From Patescibacteria group bacterium (GTDB lineage Bacteria > Patescibacteriota > Minisyncoccia > UBA6257 > Colwellbacteraceae), in assembly GCA_023380475.1 (NCBI GenBank), contig JAMCRD010000006.1:117996-181995 (forward strand): a stretch of 64,000 nt of DNA, given 5' to 3'. This document shows, one piece after another, positions 16,233 to 59,928 of this stretch (positions within the stretch are counted from its first letter, which is position 1; every line of letters begins with the position of its first letter). The translations under genes and the position numbers were made by a program. The notes under the pieces are model-generated. The model saw only the letters and a list, made by a program, of their open reading frames with translations, was not told where the DNA came from and did not search any database.

Positions 16233-16238
16233 TATAAT
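16233..16238 (+). promoter_or_regulatory. -10 box TATAAT 11 nt upstream of the ATG at 16250
   Basis: tgtgTATAATtgtgattgactATG; weak -35 (TTGTTC) 19 nt upstream. Confidence 0.35.
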
Positions 16239-16249
16239 TGTGATTGACT

Positions 16250-16993
16250 ATGGCTAAATTCAAAAATACTGCGAGTAGCCCACCAGGCATACAGCCCGGG
16301 GAACTGATAACGGTGGGAGGTGTAACCTATGAGCGTTTCCCTATAAAGGTCCCGCGACTGATTGAATTTGGCGAGGATTTGAGTGGGGTGGTGAACGAGT
16401 TTGTGAAGCCTCACTATCAAAAAGGGGACTGGATAGCCGTATCGGAGAAAGTTTTTTCGATATCTCAAAACTTAGTGAGGCACATTTCCACGGTTAAGGT
16501 TGGATTCCTTGCCCGCTTTATCACGCTTGGCGTTAAGAAGTACAAAAACATGACAGCTTGGTCTAGGCCGGAGAAGATGCAGGTCGCTATAGAAATTGTC
16601 GGCGCTCCAAGGATGATCTTTGCCGCTGCTGTCGGAGCAGTAGGTAAATTAGTTGGGCAACACGGGGTATTCTGGAAAATAGCTGGGCATCGCGTTTCAG
16701 AGATAGACGGATTCATTCCTGAAGATATGTATCCTTACACCGAATGGGGCGTGCTACCGCCGCCCGATCCGCAGGGCGATTGCGATAAGCTGGAAAAAAT
16801 TACCGGTATACCGGCAGTAACGGCGGACGCTAACTACATAGACGTACAAGTACTTGGGGTAAGCAAAGGAGTTGGGCTCGATAAGAAAACAGTTAGGCAA
16901 ATCCTAATGGATAATCCCTTGGGGCAGGGCAACAAGATGACGCCATTCGTCATCGTCAGGCGGTTTAAGAATAAGAACCTTGAATCAGCATGA
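16250..16993 (+). CDS. CofE-like (F420-0:gamma-glutamyl ligase family-like) protein, paralog A
   Basis: Motifs GDWIAVSEKVFSISQN and C-terminal DNPLGQGNKMTPFVIVRR resemble the CofE GD..hhSKxVSKAEGR and GxGxxxPxVhhRG motifs. Clear paralogy with the 17778-18824 ORF. Start moved to the first ATG, since the track start is TTG 16244. Confidence 0.5.
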   Translation: MAKFKNTASSPPGIQPGELITVGGVTYERFPIKVPRLIEFGEDLSGVVNEFVKPHYQKGDWIAVSEKVFSISQNLVRHISTVKVGFLARFITLGVKKYKNMTAWSRPEKMQVAIEIVGAPRMIFAAAVGAVGKLVGQHGVFWKIAGHRVSEIDGFIPEDMYPYTEWGVLPPPDPQGDCDKLEKITGIPAVTADANYIDVQVLGVSKGVGLDKKTVRQILMDNPLGQGNKMTPFVIVRRFKNKNLESA

Positions 16994-17772
16994 CGTTCCG
17001 CGGCCAAGTTAAACGGCATGTGCCGTGGTTTGTGCATTATTTGTACCGCAAGTTTTATTACGCTCCCTTGGATGTACCGGCAGCGTTAGGCTTAGTTTTC
17101 CATTCTACGAAATCGCCGACCAGGTTTTTTGATAGATTAAAATTAGTTATCAGTTTCTATAAAATCTCTTACTACGTTGATTGTCCTCATACAGAGCATG
17201 AGTTTTTCACCATTGCACAGCGCATTCTTAATTTGGGCCCGTCGATTAGCGGCGTGATAGCTGAAGCCGGAGTGTTCCATGGTGGTAGCACGGCCAAGCT
17301 TAGCTTGGTCGCGAGGCTTTGCGATCGTGAAATAGACGCCTTCGACTCGTTTGAGGGTATGCCCGAAAACAATGAAGTTCACGGCAAGAGTATTTACGGC
17401 CGTGAGCATCGTTTCCCCAAGGGCAGCCATGCCGTCGGGCTGGATGAAGTTCGAAGGAATATCGCTAAGTATGGCGACTTAAGCCGGGCAGATCTCCATA
17501 AAGGGTTCTTCGACGTAACCATGCCTGGTTTCAAGAGGCCGGTTTCCATTGCCTGTATCAATGTAGATCTCGTGCAGTCAACAAAAGACTGCCTAAGATT
17601 TTTGTACCCATTAGTGTCGCCTGGCGGGCTAATTGTGTCCCAAGACGGCCACTTCCCCTGGATCATAAAACTTCTAGGAGACAAATCTTTCTGGAGGGAA
17701 GAGATAAATATAGACATGCCTAAAATGGAGGGATTGGGGTCATCTAAGTTCGTATTTATTCACAAATCTTAA
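16990..17772 (+). CDS. TylF/MycF-family (macrocin O-methyltransferase-like) SAM-dependent methyltransferase
   Basis: GVIAEAGVFHGGST (SAM glycine loop), AFDSFEGMPE and INVDLVQSTKD motifs characteristic of PF05711-type O-MTs; 4-nt overlap with the upstream gene. Confidence 0.7.
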   Translation: MTFRGQVKRHVPWFVHYLYRKFYYAPLDVPAALGLVFHSTKSPTRFFDRLKLVISFYKISYYVDCPHTEHEFFTIAQRILNLGPSISGVIAEAGVFHGGSTAKLSLVARLCDREIDAFDSFEGMPENNEVHGKSIYGREHRFPKGSHAVGLDEVRRNIAKYGDLSRADLHKGFFDVTMPGFKRPVSIACINVDLVQSTKDCLRFLYPLVSPGGLIVSQDGHFPWIIKLLGDKSFWREEINIDMPKMEGLGSSKFVFIHKS

Positions 17773-17777
17773 AAACA

Positions 17778-18824
17778 ATGCCGACGGAAAATCCTCAAGC
17801 TTACACAGAAATGAAGGACGGAACCGGCCTTGTGGTTTTTTACATACCGCATACAGATGGGTCGGCGGATGTCCGGCTTGCGACCGATGACGGCACTGTT
17901 GTAAGCGAAGCTACGTTTACTAGTGTAAGGATCGACGAAGCTCATATCCTATACATGGAGGTTACGGAACTCCTCCGTTCCCGGGCTGCCGTTAAGGAAA
18001 ACCCAATAAATATCCGCGATAGGGCTGAAAAATTGCTAGCCTCTTTTAGGGGAGAAAAAGTCTCTTTCGAGGAAAATGAACCAGTCTCAGCTTCTCGTCA
18101 CCCATCTGGAGAATTTGTGGCTAACCCCGGTAAGAGGATAGATATCAATGTCGATGGCGTGATCTACAAACGTCTTCCCGTCAGGACTAGGTTGATTACA
18201 GAGAAGGATAGCGACCTACTTCTACTACTGGAGGATTATGTGAAACCGTATATCAGTGCCGGCGATATGCTCTTCGTAAGCGAGAAAGCTCTTTCTATAA
18301 CGCAGGGGCGCGTGGTGGATATGGGTGATATCAAACCTAGATTGCTGGCTAGGGTTCTTGCAAAGAATGTGGGCAACTATTACGGCTCCAGTCAGTTTAG
18401 GGGCTTTGGCCATGGTACAGCACTGGCGATGCAGTTATTTATAGAGGAGGCTGGATATCCACGCGTAATCTTTGCCGCATTCATTTCCGCGCTGACTCGA
18501 TCATTTGGTGTACGTGGCCTCTTCTACCGCATCTGCGGCAAACAGGCAAAGTCAATCGATTGCCCAATGTCCTTCTTGGTTTTAAAGTACGCTCACTCAG
18601 CTAAGCTAGCACCACGCGATCCCAGCGGTGCCGCGCGCAGATTTAAAGAAAATCTTGGTTGCGAGACCGTTATTCTCGATGCCAACTATCGCGGTGCGTT
18701 TTCGCTTGGCAAGTCCAGTAACACCATCTCGGAATCTTTTATCGGCAAGTTGTTCCGCGACAATCCGTTGGGTCAGTCAGATGAAATGACTCCTTTTTGC
18801 ATAGTGCGAAGGGCTGATGCTTAG
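17778..18824 (+). CDS. CofE-like protein, paralog B, with ~100-aa N-terminal extension
   Basis: DGVIYKRLPVRT, KPYISAGDMLFVSEKALSITQGRVV and DNPLGQSDEMTPFCIVRR, collinear with paralog A. Confidence 0.5.
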   Translation: MPTENPQAYTEMKDGTGLVVFYIPHTDGSADVRLATDDGTVVSEATFTSVRIDEAHILYMEVTELLRSRAAVKENPINIRDRAEKLLASFRGEKVSFEENEPVSASRHPSGEFVANPGKRIDINVDGVIYKRLPVRTRLITEKDSDLLLLLEDYVKPYISAGDMLFVSEKALSITQGRVVDMGDIKPRLLARVLAKNVGNYYGSSQFRGFGHGTALAMQLFIEEAGYPRVIFAAFISALTRSFGVRGLFYRICGKQAKSIDCPMSFLVLKYAHSAKLAPRDPSGAARRFKENLGCETVILDANYRGAFSLGKSSNTISESFIGKLFRDNPLGQSDEMTPFCIVRRADA

Positions 18825-20341
18825 CTGAAACCCGGAAAGAAATCCGTTTTAATCTGTCGGGTCGGTATCTTCATGGTTTGCAATGTAGCCTTGGTATCGG
18901 CAACCATCTTGTATGTGCCGGAAATGTAAAAAGTCTTGTGTTGATAGTCCGGTACATGGTGTTTGATCATCTCTGTGTCTATTCTGCCCGTTGAGCCTTC
19001 CCATCCTGCGGGTATGCTGGTTTTATCAGTAAGCGTGTAAATCGTTCTAAGACCGATTTTGTCCTCGGCTTCTCTAAACACGTCTGAATAAACTACTTCA
19101 GACGCAGTATGGTTGGCATACAGTAGTGTGACAGAACGTTTATCTCCACTATCAGACAAGTATTTAATCATGCTTCTGAATGGTGTTATGCCTATGCCTC
19201 CAGCTATGAAGACCAGCCCGATTTTTTTATTTTTAGGCATAGTAAAATCTCCGGCTAGCTGGCCCGCCATAATTTCTTCGCCCGGGACCAGGGATAGTAA
19301 ATTATTCTTGAAGCTGCTGGGATAGTCATAGAATTTAACTCCTAGGCGTAGAGCGCTTTCGGTAGGCGATGAGGCCAGTGTGAAGTAACGGCGGCTGCCG
19401 CGATCATCCGAACGCCCGTGTGCAAGAGTCCATTCCATATACTGACCCGGCTTGAATCTCAGTTTCTTTGCTGGTTTAAACGTAAACTCGTATATCCCCG
19501 TACCAATTCGTTTTCGATCCTTTAGCTTAAGAATGAGCTTTTCTTTGGGGCTTACTATATAAGAGAATATATTCCCAACCACTAATGCCAGTTCCGGTGT
19601 GGAGTACAGTGTACCGATATGTATTGCTGGGGAAAAGAGAAACCCCACCATGGCGCCGTAGATTATTTCCAGCGACCGAGTGGGCGGCGTGGTAAGAGGT
19701 TCGGTTAGCATGACAAAAGCGAAGAAGAACAACGGCGTATGTAGAAGTAGCTGGGAGACGTTTGAAGCTATATCTCCTGAGTAGGTTAATGCCACAGTTA
19801 AAATCGCGACCGACAAAAAAGAGATAACCATCGATGATTTATTTACCTTTCTGACGATCAGCAACCCGCCCAATACAACGAAGGCCATCATCGGTAGGTT
19901 GCCGCCGACCCACCAGCTAGCCGCTCCACCGATGGTTAAAGCCGTTGTAGCTACCGCGAATGCTACCGGGTTAAAAACATGCTTGTTCTTTATAGCGATT
20001 ATATATTTCGAGGTTATAGCTAGAATCGCTGCCCAAATTAGGAGGGGCATGGCGGAAATCTGCGACGGCAGGGCGGGAGTTATAATCAAAGACAAGATCA
20101 ACGCTGTTATATAAGTAGACTCAGTATTAGGTTGCGACTTAAAAACGCTGACGCAGATCTTATTCGTCAGGATGCTAACGATTAGGATAACAGCTGTCGA
20201 AAAAATTATTGAAATCGGGCTGTAAGGAAGTATGTTTAATTGCCCAAATAGCACTGCCGCTATCAACAGTACTATTAGGAAATACAGTACCAACCGGTAC
20301 ATTGTTACCCCATTTAGAAGCTTATCTATCCGGTCGAGCAT
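18821..20341 (-). CDS. Polytopic membrane protein fused to a C-terminal ferredoxin-NADP reductase-like FAD/NAD(P)-binding domain
   Basis: About 8 TM helices in the N-terminal 280 aa; C-terminal RRYFTLAS (RxYS/T FAD motif) and GLVFIAGGIGITPFRSM (NAD(P) motif GGxGxxP); TM domain has only 3 His (no bis-heme pattern). Confidence 0.7.
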   Translation of the reverse strand: MLDRIDKLLNGVTMYRLVLYFLIVLLIAAVLFGQLNILPYSPISIIFSTAVILIVSILTNKICVSVFKSQPNTESTYITALILSLIITPALPSQISAMPLLIWAAILAITSKYIIAIKNKHVFNPVAFAVATTALTIGGAASWWVGGNLPMMAFVVLGGLLIVRKVNKSSMVISFLSVAILTVALTYSGDIASNVSQLLLHTPLFFFAFVMLTEPLTTPPTRSLEIIYGAMVGFLFSPAIHIGTLYSTPELALVVGNIFSYIVSPKEKLILKLKDRKRIGTGIYEFTFKPAKKLRFKPGQYMEWTLAHGRSDDRGSRRYFTLASSPTESALRLGVKFYDYPSSFKNNLLSLVPGEEIMAGQLAGDFTMPKNKKIGLVFIAGGIGITPFRSMIKYLSDSGDKRSVTLLYANHTASEVVYSDVFREAEDKIGLRTIYTLTDKTSIPAGWEGSTGRIDTEMIKHHVPDYQHKTFYISGTYKMVADTKATLQTMKIPTRQIKTDFFPGFS

Positions 20342-21082
20342 TTATGCGGTGTATTTATCGAGGCCGCTGGTCATGGTAGCAACGCCATTTTTGTCTATGG
20401 CATAGCCTTCGAAGCCCTCTAATCTTTCTACGAACTGTATCCCGCTGAGCCCCATAGCAAAAGCGGCGGTGGCGAAACGGTCGGCCTCGTATACATCCGG
20501 CCCGATCACGGTCAAGCTTAAAATTTCATCCGCCACTTTCCCGTTCTTGGGATTGTATATATGCAAGCCTCGTATATATGTGCCGGAAGTTGCTACGCCT
20601 CCGTCGCTTAGGTAAATTGATTTCACGATCTTACTTTGGTTGAAAGGGTCTTTGATGCCGATGAGCCATTTACCTCCCTTGGCGTTCTTCCCGCTAGTTT
20701 GTACGTCGCCGCCGGCATTTATGTAGAAGTTGTTGAAGCCCATCTCTTTTAATATCTTAGCGGCATCCCTTACCGACCAGCCTTTTACTAGTCCCGACGG
20801 GTCATATTTGCCGGCGGGTGTCCTTATGTCAAAGTAGCCGTCAGTTTCTTTTTTGGTTCTTTCGCTTAGGGCGAATACCAGCTTCATGTCGTTGCTCCAC
20901 AATTTCTCACCTAATCCGTCGTTGTTTATGCGGCTTATCTCGCTGGCCGCTTTATAGGTGCTGAATTTGTCGTCGATATATCTAAAGTAACCAAAGATAT
21001 CGTCGAAAACCTCGTCATCGACATCCTGGCCGACAATTTCCACGGATATCGGCATACCCATCACTATCTTGGTCTGTTTCAT
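20342..21082 (-). CDS. apbE: ApbE-family FAD:protein FMN transferase (short form, no signal peptide)
   Basis: MKQTKIVMGMPISVEIVG... N-terminus; conserved ...GYFDI..., GGVATSGTY and ...DAFATA-like (ADRFATAAFAMG) blocks of ApbE/Ftp. Confidence 0.8.
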   Translation of the reverse strand: MKQTKIVMGMPISVEIVGQDVDDEVFDDIFGYFRYIDDKFSTYKAASEISRINNDGLGEKLWSNDMKLVFALSERTKKETDGYFDIRTPAGKYDPSGLVKGWSVRDAAKILKEMGFNNFYINAGGDVQTSGKNAKGGKWLIGIKDPFNQSKIVKSIYLSDGGVATSGTYIRGLHIYNPKNGKVADEILSLTVIGPDVYEADRFATAAFAMGLSGIQFVERLEGFEGYAIDKNGVATMTSGLDKYTA

Positions 21083-21087
21083 TGGTG

Positions 21088-21537
21088 CTAGTTTTTAGCC
21101 TGACTCAGAGCCGAAGTTAACGACTGTTGGTAGGCCAAGCTGGTTTCAGTTGCTCCGGAGACGATATCGACGTTGGCGCTCTGTGACTGAATGGCTTCCT
21201 GTTTAAGTATTGGTAAGGCGTAGCCGCTTACTGCAAGCGAGTGGCCGTTGTCGTTGGGATATTGCAAAAACTGTACGTCGGTTAGCTTGCCGTTTTTTAT
21301 GGCTGCCGCTACCTGCACGTTTCCGTAAAAAGCATTTGCCACACCTCCGTAGAATAAGCCGCCTTTGTATGCCGGTGATCTTGTGACTGAGGCGGGGGAG
21401 GTGGGTCGGACGACGTCGCTACTGCTGGGGACGATAGCCTGTTGAGACGTGGTGAGGGAACCCTGGTTGTCGTTGCTCAGCAAGGCGTAAAGCACGAATG
21501 CGGTTATCACTCCCAGTGAAAACAGGAATTTCTTCAT
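21088..21537 (-). CDS. Secreted or anchored FMN-binding domain protein (FMN_bind; ApbE substrate type)
   Basis: N-terminal signal/anchor MKKFLFSLGVITAFVLYALL; C-terminal DIVSGATETS flavinylation motif (SGATxT). Confidence 0.75.
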   Translation of the reverse strand: MKKFLFSLGVITAFVLYALLSNDNQGSLTTSQQAIVPSSSDVVRPTSPASVTRSPAYKGGLFYGGVANAFYGNVQVAAAIKNGKLTDVQFLQYPNDNGHSLAVSGYALPILKQEAIQSQSANVDIVSGATETSLAYQQSLTSALSQAKN

Positions 21538-22708: not shown

Positions 22709-22949
22709 ACGGTGGTCGACCTCATTTTTTAGAGACGCCCTATTTGTTTTGAATAAGATGGTCGGCAGGCGTGTATTAGTTGGTGAAAGGCCACAATTAG
22801 CCTTACCAACTAAACATGAAAATAATCTACCATATACGCTGCCCTACCAGAAGCCAACCTACGACTAGCATAGATTGGTGATGTCGGTTCAACCTATGTA
22901 AAGTTTGCGTACATAAAACCGCGGCTAGGCCGCGGTTGTTATGTAAGTG

Positions 22950-23287
22950 TGGAGGCGGAGGGATTGAACCCTCGTCCAGGAAGTTGCTCAAAGGCGCTCT
23001 ACAAGCTTAGTCCTCTTGCGAAGACGTGGTTGCTCCCGGTGGTTTAACCTGCCTTATTGGGAACCTGTTGGGGCAGGCGATTCCGCTGTATGACACCGGT
23101 TTGACCTCTAGCGGAAATCGAGGACCGATGCCCGACTCATGTGGAGCCGAGGCCAGCATTAAGCCAAAGCCAATGCTGGGGCTGCAACTTTATAGTTGGC
23201 AGTTCTTGGTTTGCGACGGGTTTTACGAGCATGTCGCAGCTCGGCTTGCTACCTTTAAGGGTGCTCCCTGTCGAAGCTTGCGCCCCC
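22950..23287 (-). ncRNA. ssrA: tmRNA (SsrA)
   Basis: Minus-strand 5' end GGGGGCGCAAGC pairs with 3' end ...GGUUCAAUCCCUCCGCCUCC-A (tRNA-like T-arm and acceptor). Internal reading frame GCC AAC UAU AAA GUU GCA GCC CCA GCA UUG GCU UUG GCU UAA encodes the tag (A)NYKVAAPALALA. Located immediately downstream of smpB. Confidence 0.85.
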
Positions 23288-23725
23288 ATTACGTATCTCT
23301 TTCTGAAATTCTTGCTTTTTAAGAAACTCTCGCTTGTCAGCCTTATTTCTCGGGCGAACCAGGCCTATCTCTAGTTTGACTATGCCCAGTTTGCCGCGGG
23401 CAGTATAGATTCTGAGCGGGATAGCAGTCAACCCCTTCTCTTTTATCCGTCCTAACAGGAGGTTTATCTCTTTGCGGTTTAACAGTAGTCTGCGATCACG
23501 CTGCGGTTTATAGCTGGCAGGGGTATTCTTGGGCTGATAAGGTGGGACGTCAGCTCCAATAAGCCAGGCCTCGCCACCCCTCAGGGCGACATGGGCGCCG
23601 GCGATGTTAACCCGGCCCGACTTTATGGCTTTCACCTCGTGGCCGTGCAATTCGATACCCGCCTCAAACTTTTCCAACACGGCGTAATCGTGATAAGCCC
23701 TGCGATTGGCTGCCAATTCACTCAT
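23255..23725 (-). CDS. smpB: SsrA-binding protein SmpB
   Basis: MSELAANRRAYHDYAVLEKFEAGIELHGHEVKAIKSGRVNIAGAHVAL... canonical SmpB sequence; 3' end overlaps the tmRNA 5' end by ~33 nt. Confidence 0.9.
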   Translation of the reverse strand: MSELAANRRAYHDYAVLEKFEAGIELHGHEVKAIKSGRVNIAGAHVALRGGEAWLIGADVPPYQPKNTPASYKPQRDRRLLLNRKEINLLLGRIKEKGLTAIPLRIYTARGKLGIVKLEIGLVRPRNKADKREFLKKQEFQKEIRNGGASFDREHP

Positions 23726-57424: not shown

Positions 57425-57584
57425 TGTCTCTGCTCAACGATGGTGACAGATCGTTTACAAGTGAACAAATAAGTAACCAAATTGGTAAAGGTTCAAAACA
57501 ATAGATAATAAATAGAGAATTTTTTAGTTGTCCCAAAGCACTTTACTTTCGACCGGCCCAGCATGGGTGGTCGAAAGTTTTTTT

Positions 57585-59928
<2,344 letters not shown>

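Follow-up and report, generated by a model that had tools for sequence, protein, structure and literature searches.

A 64,000-nucleotide stretch of a Patescibacteria contig (JAMCRD010000006.1, positions 117,996 to 181,995; hereafter the window) carries three tightly packed genes, A, MT and B, which bring together parts of two gene cassettes that are otherwise alternatives to each other. One cassette consists of A, the methyltransferase MT and a pyridoxal-phosphate (PLP) enzyme of the cysteine-synthase/SbnA-like type (PALP); the other consists of PanD (aspartate 1-decarboxylase), B and a PALP of its own. Our best overall reading, to which we grant slightly less than even chances, is that A and B are paralogs with the fold of CofE, the F420-0:gamma-glutamyl ligase, that have been re-purposed from coenzyme F420 synthesis, and that the two cassettes are alternative amino-acid-ligating tailoring systems. 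The elements on which the argument turns are the following.

16250-16993, + strand: gene A, 247 aa, putative amide-bond ligase with a predicted CofE fold
16990-17772, + strand: gene MT, 260 aa, S-adenosylmethionine (SAM)-dependent O-methyltransferase of the TylF/MycF/NovP family
17778-18824, + strand: gene B, 348 aa, paralog of A
17778-18062, + strand: N-terminal domain of B (residues 1 to about 95), modelled as four strands and two long helices
18141-18824, + strand: CofE-like catalytic domain of B (residues from about 122 to 348), which aligns to residues 20-238 of A and to CofE
16233-16238, + strand: TATAAT hexamer, a perfect match and a possible -10 element

Two cassettes and a hybrid locus

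The initial annotation had read the three genes as a single conserved module in which two ligases flank a methyltransferase. The comparison of gene neighbourhoods speaks against this: the order A-MT-B occurs in none of 176 related loci, and A and B are never neighbours in the 80 genome loci surveyed for A (35 from its close clade and 45 from its far clade), in the 80 metagenome loci surveyed for B (71 of them non-redundant) or in 16 further loci. Two separate cassettes are found instead. Below, related loci are labelled L and homologous proteins P, each with a number.

In locus L006, PanD, B and PALP lie between Nramp, CSD, an AI-2E transporter and h170 on one side and a Thioredoxin_4/DsbA gene, SmpB and ArgRS on the other. 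The same flanks enclose A, MT and PALP in L008, L010, L011, L013, L014 and L019 and, independently, in L168-L171. The identity of the flanking proteins to those of L006 is as follows.

Nramp: 86-90%
CSD: 98%
AI-2E transporter: 62-68%
h170: 69-86%
DsbA-like protein: 74-80%
SmpB: 83-86%
ArgRS: 69-77%

Between the swapped cassettes, the ligases are 32-35% identical, and the PALPs are 25% identical or have no detectable similarity. Such similar flanks around such a dissimilar centre indicate that, in closely related Paceibacteria, a single orthologous slot is taken by either of two three-gene cassettes. The smpB-argS pair is a conserved downstream flank of ligase cassettes in related genomes.

The locus of the window can be placed in the same frame. 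In L088, atpF, atpE and atpB are followed by PanD, by B and then by RnfD-FNR, ApbE, FMN_bind and sigma, which is the order of the window, at 64-78% identity (51% for FMN_bind); the single difference is that PanD stands in place of A-MT. The nearest relatives of the window's A, at 84% identity, are arranged as A-MT-PALP, and those of its B, at 71-74%, as PanD-B or as B next to a short-chain dehydrogenase/reductase (SDR), from which we conclude that A-MT-B in the window is a lineage-specific hybrid. We hold this origin, and the two-cassette architecture on which it depends, with high confidence.

The surveys also give the company that each ligase keeps. In the close clade, MT adjoins A in 32 of 35 loci, the contigs of the remaining three ending at A, and PALP (PF00291, 85 bits) adjoins A in about 21 of the 35. 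In the far clade, MT is adjacent in 6 of 45 loci, and an AsnB-type amidotransferase (TIGR01536, 443 bits against a cut-off of 267) lies directly upstream of A in 10 of the 45, spanning Patescibacteria and Actinomycetota. MurJ is found directly downstream in 5-6 of these 45 loci and a MurC-like ligase within two genes in 8; in several distinct arrangements, far-clade A is also near a predicted peptidase with an M23-like motif. The neighbours in Actinomycetota (an MprF-like transmembrane protein, a PIG-L deacetylase, an M20 peptidase and a solute-binding protein) were considered as a clue and set aside, as they give no consistent signal. Two or three tandem copies of a Cys-rich protein (about 570-690 aa, unmatched in Pfam) recur beside far-clade A in several Patescibacteria lineages, upstream or downstream of it (L043, L047 and L051; representative at L050 3570-5321). 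In Phycicoccus elongatus Lp2 (L085 7989-9927), the AsnB-like gene upstream of the A homolog shows up as two overlapping open reading frames (ORFs) of 167 and 541 aa in different frames, which may reflect a frameshift, a pseudogene or a sequencing error.

PanD adjoins B in 40 of 80 loci, fusions included, and does so in at least six gene orders: it may precede B, divergently or on the same strand, follow B in either orientation, or have PALP between itself and B. PanD-B fusions are found in at least three independent protein clusters. The PanD of L006 is a true equivalog (TIGR00223, 123.9 bits against a cut-off of 106), and the self-cleavage motif N-Y-V-G-S-I-T-I-D is present in both free and fused forms. 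This linkage and fusion of B to aspartate 1-decarboxylase, lying outside the window, is the strongest of the functional clues, and one that the initial annotation lacked. In the single-ORF fusions of PanD to full-length B (L004 8001-9425, L105 and L122; P0125, P0151 and P0165) the Gly-Ser self-cleavage site is intact, and the alpha chain would remain attached to the ligase once PanD has processed itself.

PALP adjoins B in 26 of 80 loci, and a glutaredoxin-like ORF does so in about six non-redundant ones. In a tree of the PALPs, the A-associated clade holds 17 A-linked sequences and one B-linked, and the B-associated clade 19 B-linked and four A-linked. The PALPs are far more divergent than the ligases, with about 27% identity. 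They clearly match PF00291 and reach 36-137 bits against the CysK, CysM and SbnA equivalogs, far under the cut-offs of 344-413; by these scores they are divergent members of the beta-replacement branch.

Some other neighbours of B deserve mention. An unannotated protein of about 195 aa that spans the membrane several times and is unmatched in Pfam, h196, lies directly beside B in at least eight loci, mostly PanD-less (L136 1367-1951, - strand; L174 7085-7675, - strand; also L089, L093, L106, L107, L131, L133 and L140), and may be a transporter for substrate or product. In L172 and L173, where the nearest relatives of B (74% identity) are found, a gap of 15 nt separates B from an upstream SDR of the NAD-dependent sugar-nucleotide epimerase/dehydratase type (L172 5131-7618); being confined to one lineage, this adjacency was set aside as general evidence. 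In the same lineage, a PduO-type Cob_adeno_trans gene is found downstream of B, at 7 nt in L172 and L173 and at about 1.5 kb in L174, L175 and L089.

CofE-like folds and a TylF-family methyltransferase

A and B are 34% identical over 224 residues (BLASTP, E=5e-40), which bears out the paralogy put forward initially, and B carries an extra N-terminal extension of about 120 residues relative to A. The collinear blocks quoted in the initial annotation are real, and are invariant or nearly so in both families. At 34% identity the two proteins are too diverged for an assembly duplication to be the source of their likeness, which was thus ruled out, and they are genuine old paralogs. The invariant polar motifs that they have in common (S-E-K, Q-x-R, I-D, D-A-N-Y, D-N-P-x-G-Q and M-T-P-F-x-x-x-R) argue for both being active enzymes that work by a common mechanism.

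Both families are large, highly conserved and uncharacterised. We detected 430 homologs of A, 55-85% identical among the 120 matches listed, and 907 of B, mostly 62-74% identical (range 58-74%); a scan of species-representative genomes gave 166 relatives of A. The close clade of A comprises Paceibacteria/Parcubacteria, at 62-86% identity, and the far clade other Patescibacteria lineages, Actinomycetota and two metagenome-assembled genomes (MAGs) labelled Bacillota. Relatives in Actinomycetota and in these two MAGs are 43-56% identical to A and include the cultivated Phycicoccus elongatus Lp2; identity is 55-86% across Patescibacteria classes and 43-49% to the Actinomycetota relatives. A protein identical to A is in the database under the label hypothetical, from a Patescibacteria MAG, and the named homologs of A and B all carry that same annotation except P0177, a B-family protein of a Minisyncoccota MAG, which is called 'coenzyme F420-0:L-glutamate ligase' in NCBI. 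Since the tests for CofE membership failed, as described below, this label is probably an over-annotation, and one that could be propagated to further entries.

The N-terminal domain of B is specific to its family and conserved across it; it has no Pfam match and no significant fold match by Foldseek, and it is followed by a low-confidence linker that extends to about residue 121. Short B proteins of about 235-255 aa (L154-L167, for instance L160 10001-10765 and L162 782-1477) are devoid of this domain and still adjoin PanD, so that it is dispensable for the PanD link.

By sequence, the likeness to CofE is weak, in keeping with the moderate resemblance stated in the initial annotation, and by structure it is unambiguous. 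Against PF01996 (gathering score 25 bits), A falls short with 21.3 bits (profile positions 6-69 of 218), and B reaches 26.9 bits over positions 2-68 of 218, which exceeds the threshold numerically but covers the N-terminal third and not the full domain. Against the NCBIfam equivalog TIGR01916 (cut-off 180.65 bits), B reaches 15.5 bits and A has no match. Sequence searches of the PDB, with the single sequences and with a profile of family A, gave CofE matches that are N-terminal and insignificant (E 0.2-0.5). The AlphaFold model of A (pLDDT 88, pTM 0.84), however, matches CofE by Foldseek with E=2.5e-8, and CofE is likewise the sole significant match of the AF2 model of B (pLDDT 81; E=9e-7, TM 0.55 normalised to CofE). 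An alignment of CofE, built from an exhaustive search of representatives from which sequences with frameshifted C-termini were dropped, gave by hhalign a probability of 93.8% for B (E=1.8e-7) and of 68.5% for A (E=4.6e-5), both alignments being limited to the N-terminal 140-150 columns. On these models, we regard it as almost certain that A and B have the CofE fold.

The relationship to CofE (PF01996, TIGR01916; PDB 2phn, 2g9i and 7uld; FbiB's N-terminal domain) is nonetheless one of remote homology across the N-terminal 140-150 residues, with identity of just 17-23%. In the hhalign alignments, the CofE residues S47-K48-x-E50-x-R52 correspond to S-[IV]-S-Q-N-R in A and to T-I-T-Q-G-R in B; the Lys and the Glu of the CofE motif V-S-K-x-E-G-R are lost, and the Ser/Thr and the Arg retained. 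Also retained are an upstream Lys (in Q-K in CofE, in S-E-K here) and an L-P-x-D-P segment. We take the metal ligands of CofE to be the Asp of S-D-T and the Asp of A-G-I-D-x-S-N. The Asp of S-D-T is paired by hhalign with the D of D-A-N-Y (D193 in A, D301 in B); that of A-G-I-D-x-S-N is put on R148 of A by hhalign and on D153 (S-E-I-D-G) in an alternative register, which leaves its position ambiguous. A has a helical insert at residues 86-134, approximately, and B differs by its added N-terminal domain (about 95 aa) and linker. After D-A-N-Y only some 45-50 residues follow in A and B, in a C-terminal region that hhalign does not align to CofE, and the D-T-x-G-R-P-W-R segment of CofE, its domain-swapped beta-hairpin and its C-terminal R...DLFR have no counterpart in either protein. 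In Af-CofE, the F420 chromophore is held by the G153-C155 segment, by R234 of the partner subunit and by the hairpin (PMC10861534).

The genomic setting is equally different from that of CofE, whose gene partners are wholly unlike those of A and B (PanD, PALP, the TylF-family MT and AsnB). As the initial annotation had noted for the 64-kb window, no F420 genes are visible: cofC, cofD, cofGH, fbiA, fbiC and fbiD are found neither in the window nor among the recurring neighbours in about 170 loci. Most hosts of A and B belong to the Patescibacteria and have genomes smaller than about 1 Mb. We have next to no doubt that A and B serve something other than F420.

The middle gene was correctly placed from the start in the TylF family: MT matches PF05711 over residues 85-219 with 67.8 bits against a gathering score of 23 (E=1.1e-18), and it has no match among NCBIfam models. 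Its relatives in the PDB are 4cdz/5i10 (E=3.5e-14), NovP (2wk1, E=6.8e-10) and MycF (4x7u, E=5e-8). MT aligns to the solved members over residues 82-225 and has, like them, the FDSFEG motif and a Gly-rich SAM motif, which reads EAGVFHGG. The region that we take to have the family consensus D-x-D-L-Y-E-S-T reads N-V-D-L-V-Q-S-T in MT, and likewise in the homolog of L020, so that the first Asp of D-x-D appears as Asn in MT. In contrast to the known TylF systems, there are no macrolide, aminocoumarin or deoxysugar biosynthesis genes nearby, and MT is always paired with a CofE-like ligase instead of a glycosyltransferase.

A proposed ligase function and its rivals

The chemistry of CofE, which depends on a nucleoside triphosphate (NTP) and a metal and proceeds through an acyl-phosphate (PMC10861534), is the model for what follows. 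A and B would each bind an NTP and a divalent metal, activate a substrate carboxylate as an acyl-phosphate and join it to an amine to form an amide bond. By analogy with CofE, we consider such amide-ligase chemistry likely for both. B would ligate beta-alanine, the product of PanD, most simply as the incoming amine (compare the glutamate pocket of CofE); because of the fusions and adjacency of PanD and B, we are inclined to favour beta-alanine as the substrate of B, with somewhat better than even chances. A would make an equivalent ligation with another amino-acid-derived unit, its substrate or product being methylated by MT, and in distant lineages amidation by AsnB would take the place of this methylation in the A pathway.

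The target of these ligations might be a cell-envelope precursor, either peptidoglycan or a glycopolymer, onto which an amino-acid side chain or bridge would be added. This is a tentative suggestion, favoured by the MurJ, MurC-like and M23-like genes beside far-clade A, by the membership of MT in a family of sugar O-methyltransferases, and by the swapping of cassettes between close relatives, which we infer to be typical of surface-structure loci. A unifying idea, and a speculative one, is that of an aspartate-derived residue whose spare carboxylate would be removed by PanD, amidated by AsnB or otherwise modified by MT, PanD and AsnB both being enzymes that act on aspartate; these and MT would then be three ways to supply, or to neutralise, a unit of aspartate type.

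Known peptidoglycan side-chain systems follow a similar logic. A D-aspartate ligase (Aslfm) works with an AsnB-type amidotransferase (AsnH) in Lactococcus and Enterococcus; a further example is the amidation of meso-diaminopimelate (mDAP) by AsnB1/LtsA. As would be the case here, an NTP-dependent ligase adds an aspartate-type residue and the partner removes the spare negative charge; the likeness extends to the adjacent AsnB-ligase pair in Patescibacteria and Actinomycetota and to the MurJ, MurC-like and M23-like genes that lie nearby in some lineages. However, Aslfm is an ATP-grasp enzyme, unlike A with its CofE fold, and the link to A is one of gene context. As to B, PanC (pantoate-beta-alanine ligase) and the archaeal phosphopantothenate synthetase carry out NTP-dependent amide ligations using beta-alanine, as proposed for B, but their folds are unrelated to it, no pantoate or coenzyme A (CoA) genes accompany B, and the alternative cassette lacks a source of beta-alanine.

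Of the tailoring pathway suggested in the initial annotation, what stands is that a new pathway is likely and that the families are uncharacterised; the single module does not, and amino-acid (beta-alanine) chemistry is now favoured. Put in its widest form, the possibility, which we would rate as rather doubtful, is that A and B are an ancient and so far unrecognised branch of the CofE superfamily, common among Patescibacteria and also found in Actinomycetota, that adds beta-alanine or other aspartate-derived residues to an envelope precursor, or that builds a new beta-alanine/cysteine metabolite, with interchangeable cassettes diversifying the product from one close relative to another.

Several observations weigh against this picture of re-purposed, amino-acid-ligating enzymes. 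The functional assignments of A and B all come from gene context. The invariant Lys and Glu of CofE are replaced in both and the alignment of the first metal-binding Asp is ambiguous, so that nucleotide use and ligase activity are something that we infer. About 16 well-flanked B loci have no PanD nearby, and the window itself has neither PanD nor PALP across its 64 kb. The adjacency of MurJ and MurC is seen in a small number of lineages that are related to one another, and may have been inherited as synteny, and the contexts of A in Actinomycetota are heterogeneous. TylF-family enzymes methylate hydroxyls, which makes the neutralisation of a carboxylate by MT speculative. Finally, the PALP partners, the glutaredoxin-like neighbour of B, the DsbA-like genes and the phosphoadenosine phosphosulfate (PAPS) reductase fit a thiol or cysteine chemistry equally well.

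This last point leads to a rival that we consider unlikely, although not negligible, in which the cassettes would produce a small, soluble molecule of peptide-like nature, such as a thiol of low molecular weight, with the ligases in the role that GshA and GshB have for glutathione. PALP would give cysteine or a beta-substituted alanine and PanD beta-alanine, a homoglutathione-like compound of Cys and beta-Ala being possible, and the capping of the product would fall to MT or AsnB; a precedent exists in homoglutathione (gamma-Glu-Cys-beta-Ala). Both cassettes do contain a cysteine-synthase/SbnA-like PLP enzyme with an SSGN/TSGN loop, the glutaredoxin-like ORF lies beside B and a Thioredoxin_4/DsbA gene after the cassette, a PAPS reductase is found beside PALP in L004, and CofE itself forms gamma-glutamyl amide bonds (PMC10861534). 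However, the DsbA-like gene, like SmpB and ArgRS, belongs to the flanking synteny of both cassette types and lies outside the swapped unit, every PALP is far under the cysteine-synthase equivalog cut-offs, a change of chemistry among close relatives is not to be expected of an essential redox buffer, and the MurJ/MurC context and the sugar-type methyltransferase are left unexplained. Less probable still is that B replaces a step of the pantothenate/CoA type, joining beta-alanine to pantoate or phosphopantoate (as do PanC and the archaeal phosphopantothenate synthetase) or to cysteine, with A-MT as an alternative route. The PanD-B fusions are in line with it, as is the possible supply of cysteine for the cysteamine moiety by the cysteine-synthase-like partner; and the one well-established bacterial role of PanD is to provide beta-alanine for pantothenate (PMC3398536). 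But panB, panE, coaBC, coaD and coaE never recur beside B in the 71 non-redundant loci, A-MT-PALP has no source of beta-alanine, a methyltransferase has no place in CoA synthesis, and in those related genomes that were compared, the two cassettes replace each other at a single locus.

The conservation of the ligases is unusually high for metabolic enzymes (55-86% for A across Patescibacteria, 58-74% for B) and SmpB, ArgRS, GluRS, LepA, IF3 and L20 are common neighbours, so one may think of the modification of a macromolecule of the translation apparatus or of another conserved protein, in the manner of the beta-lysylation of EF-P by EpmA or the glutamylation of S6 by RimK. We find this improbable: the translation genes are constant flanking synteny while the cassette changes, no gene for a candidate target (efp, rpsF) recurs, and a PLP enzyme and a sugar-type methyltransferase fit it poorly. 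It is more improbable yet that A-MT-B is one conserved, dedicated operon of ligase, methyltransferase and ligase acting on a single substrate. The three genes do lie on the same strand, with a 4-nt overlap and a 5-nt gap, and here they could act on related substrates; against this stand the absence of their order from the 176 related loci and the different arrangements in which the nearest relatives of A and of B are found. As for A and B being CofE enzymes of the ordinary kind, which give F420 its glutamate tail, the marginal PF01996 matches and the NCBI name of P0177 speak for it, but the TIGR01916 score of B lies far below its cut-off, the elements that contact F420 are absent, the catalytic motif is altered, neither the window nor about 170 neighbourhoods hold F420 genes, and the hosts are mostly Patescibacteria with small genomes; we give this practically no credence.

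Surroundings of the locus and significance

In the window, A and MT overlap by 4 nt (ATGA, 16990-16993), as initially described, and the gap between MT and B, given then as 6 nt, measures 5 nt (17773-17777). No internal terminator above background is found within A-MT-B, and from this layout the three genes are probably co-transcribed in this genome. The divergent atpB (- strand) and A are separated by an intergenic region of 132 nt that contains the TATAAT hexamer. The hexamer does lie 11 nt before the ATG of A, as had been claimed, but the promoter claim attached to it was not supported, since it rests on a -10 alone: there is no acceptable -35 hexamer for TATAAT at 16233-16238, and a consensus promoter scan did not call it. 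A -10 element of a near-leaderless A transcript is a plausible reading of it.

The window also encodes an ATP synthase, enzymes of glycolysis and the pentose-phosphate pathway, aminoacyl-tRNA synthetases and pilus genes, and no genes for F420, CoA, PanD or cysteine synthase within its 64 kb. Downstream of B, at 18821-21537 (- strand), lie a 506-aa fusion of an RnfD/NqrB-like membrane domain with an FNR-type NAD-binding domain, an ApbE flavin transferase and FMN_bind. B and the RnfD-FNR gene are convergent and their stop codons overlap by 4 nt. The trio, which looks like an extracytosolic flavinylated redox module judging from its domains, is syntenic in L088, L099 and L021/L002, and was set aside as probably not part of the ligase system, this being the conserved synteny of one lineage. 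Further along lie smpB (23255-23725, - strand) and, overlapping the region of its 3' end, a tmRNA gene (22947-23287, - strand) with the tag peptide ANYKVAAPALALA. A group I intron (Rfam RF00028, 75.9 bits) is found at 59523-59875 (+ strand); a complete 16S rRNA gene (57579-59060) lies about 460 nt upstream, and neither a 23S rRNA nor a tRNA gene that could be its host was detected in the surroundings.

A and B are the first clear relatives of CofE outside F420 synthesis, and as such they would bear on the origin of CofE, which has been described as unclear (PMC8498797). Their families are among the better-conserved proteins of Patescibacteria, and nothing relevant on CofE-like proteins or PanD in these bacteria was found in the literature that we searched. 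The PanD-B fusions imply a use of beta-alanine outside pantothenate. Patescibacteria are generally reported not to make CoA, and if our proposal is true, PanD would gain a function beyond pantothenate in such bacteria.

The exchange of PanD-B-PALP for A-MT-PALP at one locus amounts to a natural experiment, and it suggests that the two cassettes are functional alternatives. With its three genes, the cassette is moreover compact enough for heterologous expression, and the far-clade A homolog of Phycicoccus elongatus Lp2, a cultivated bacterium, makes the question testable. If the product is an envelope decoration, the exchange of cassettes would bear on the surface variation of these episymbiotic bacteria.

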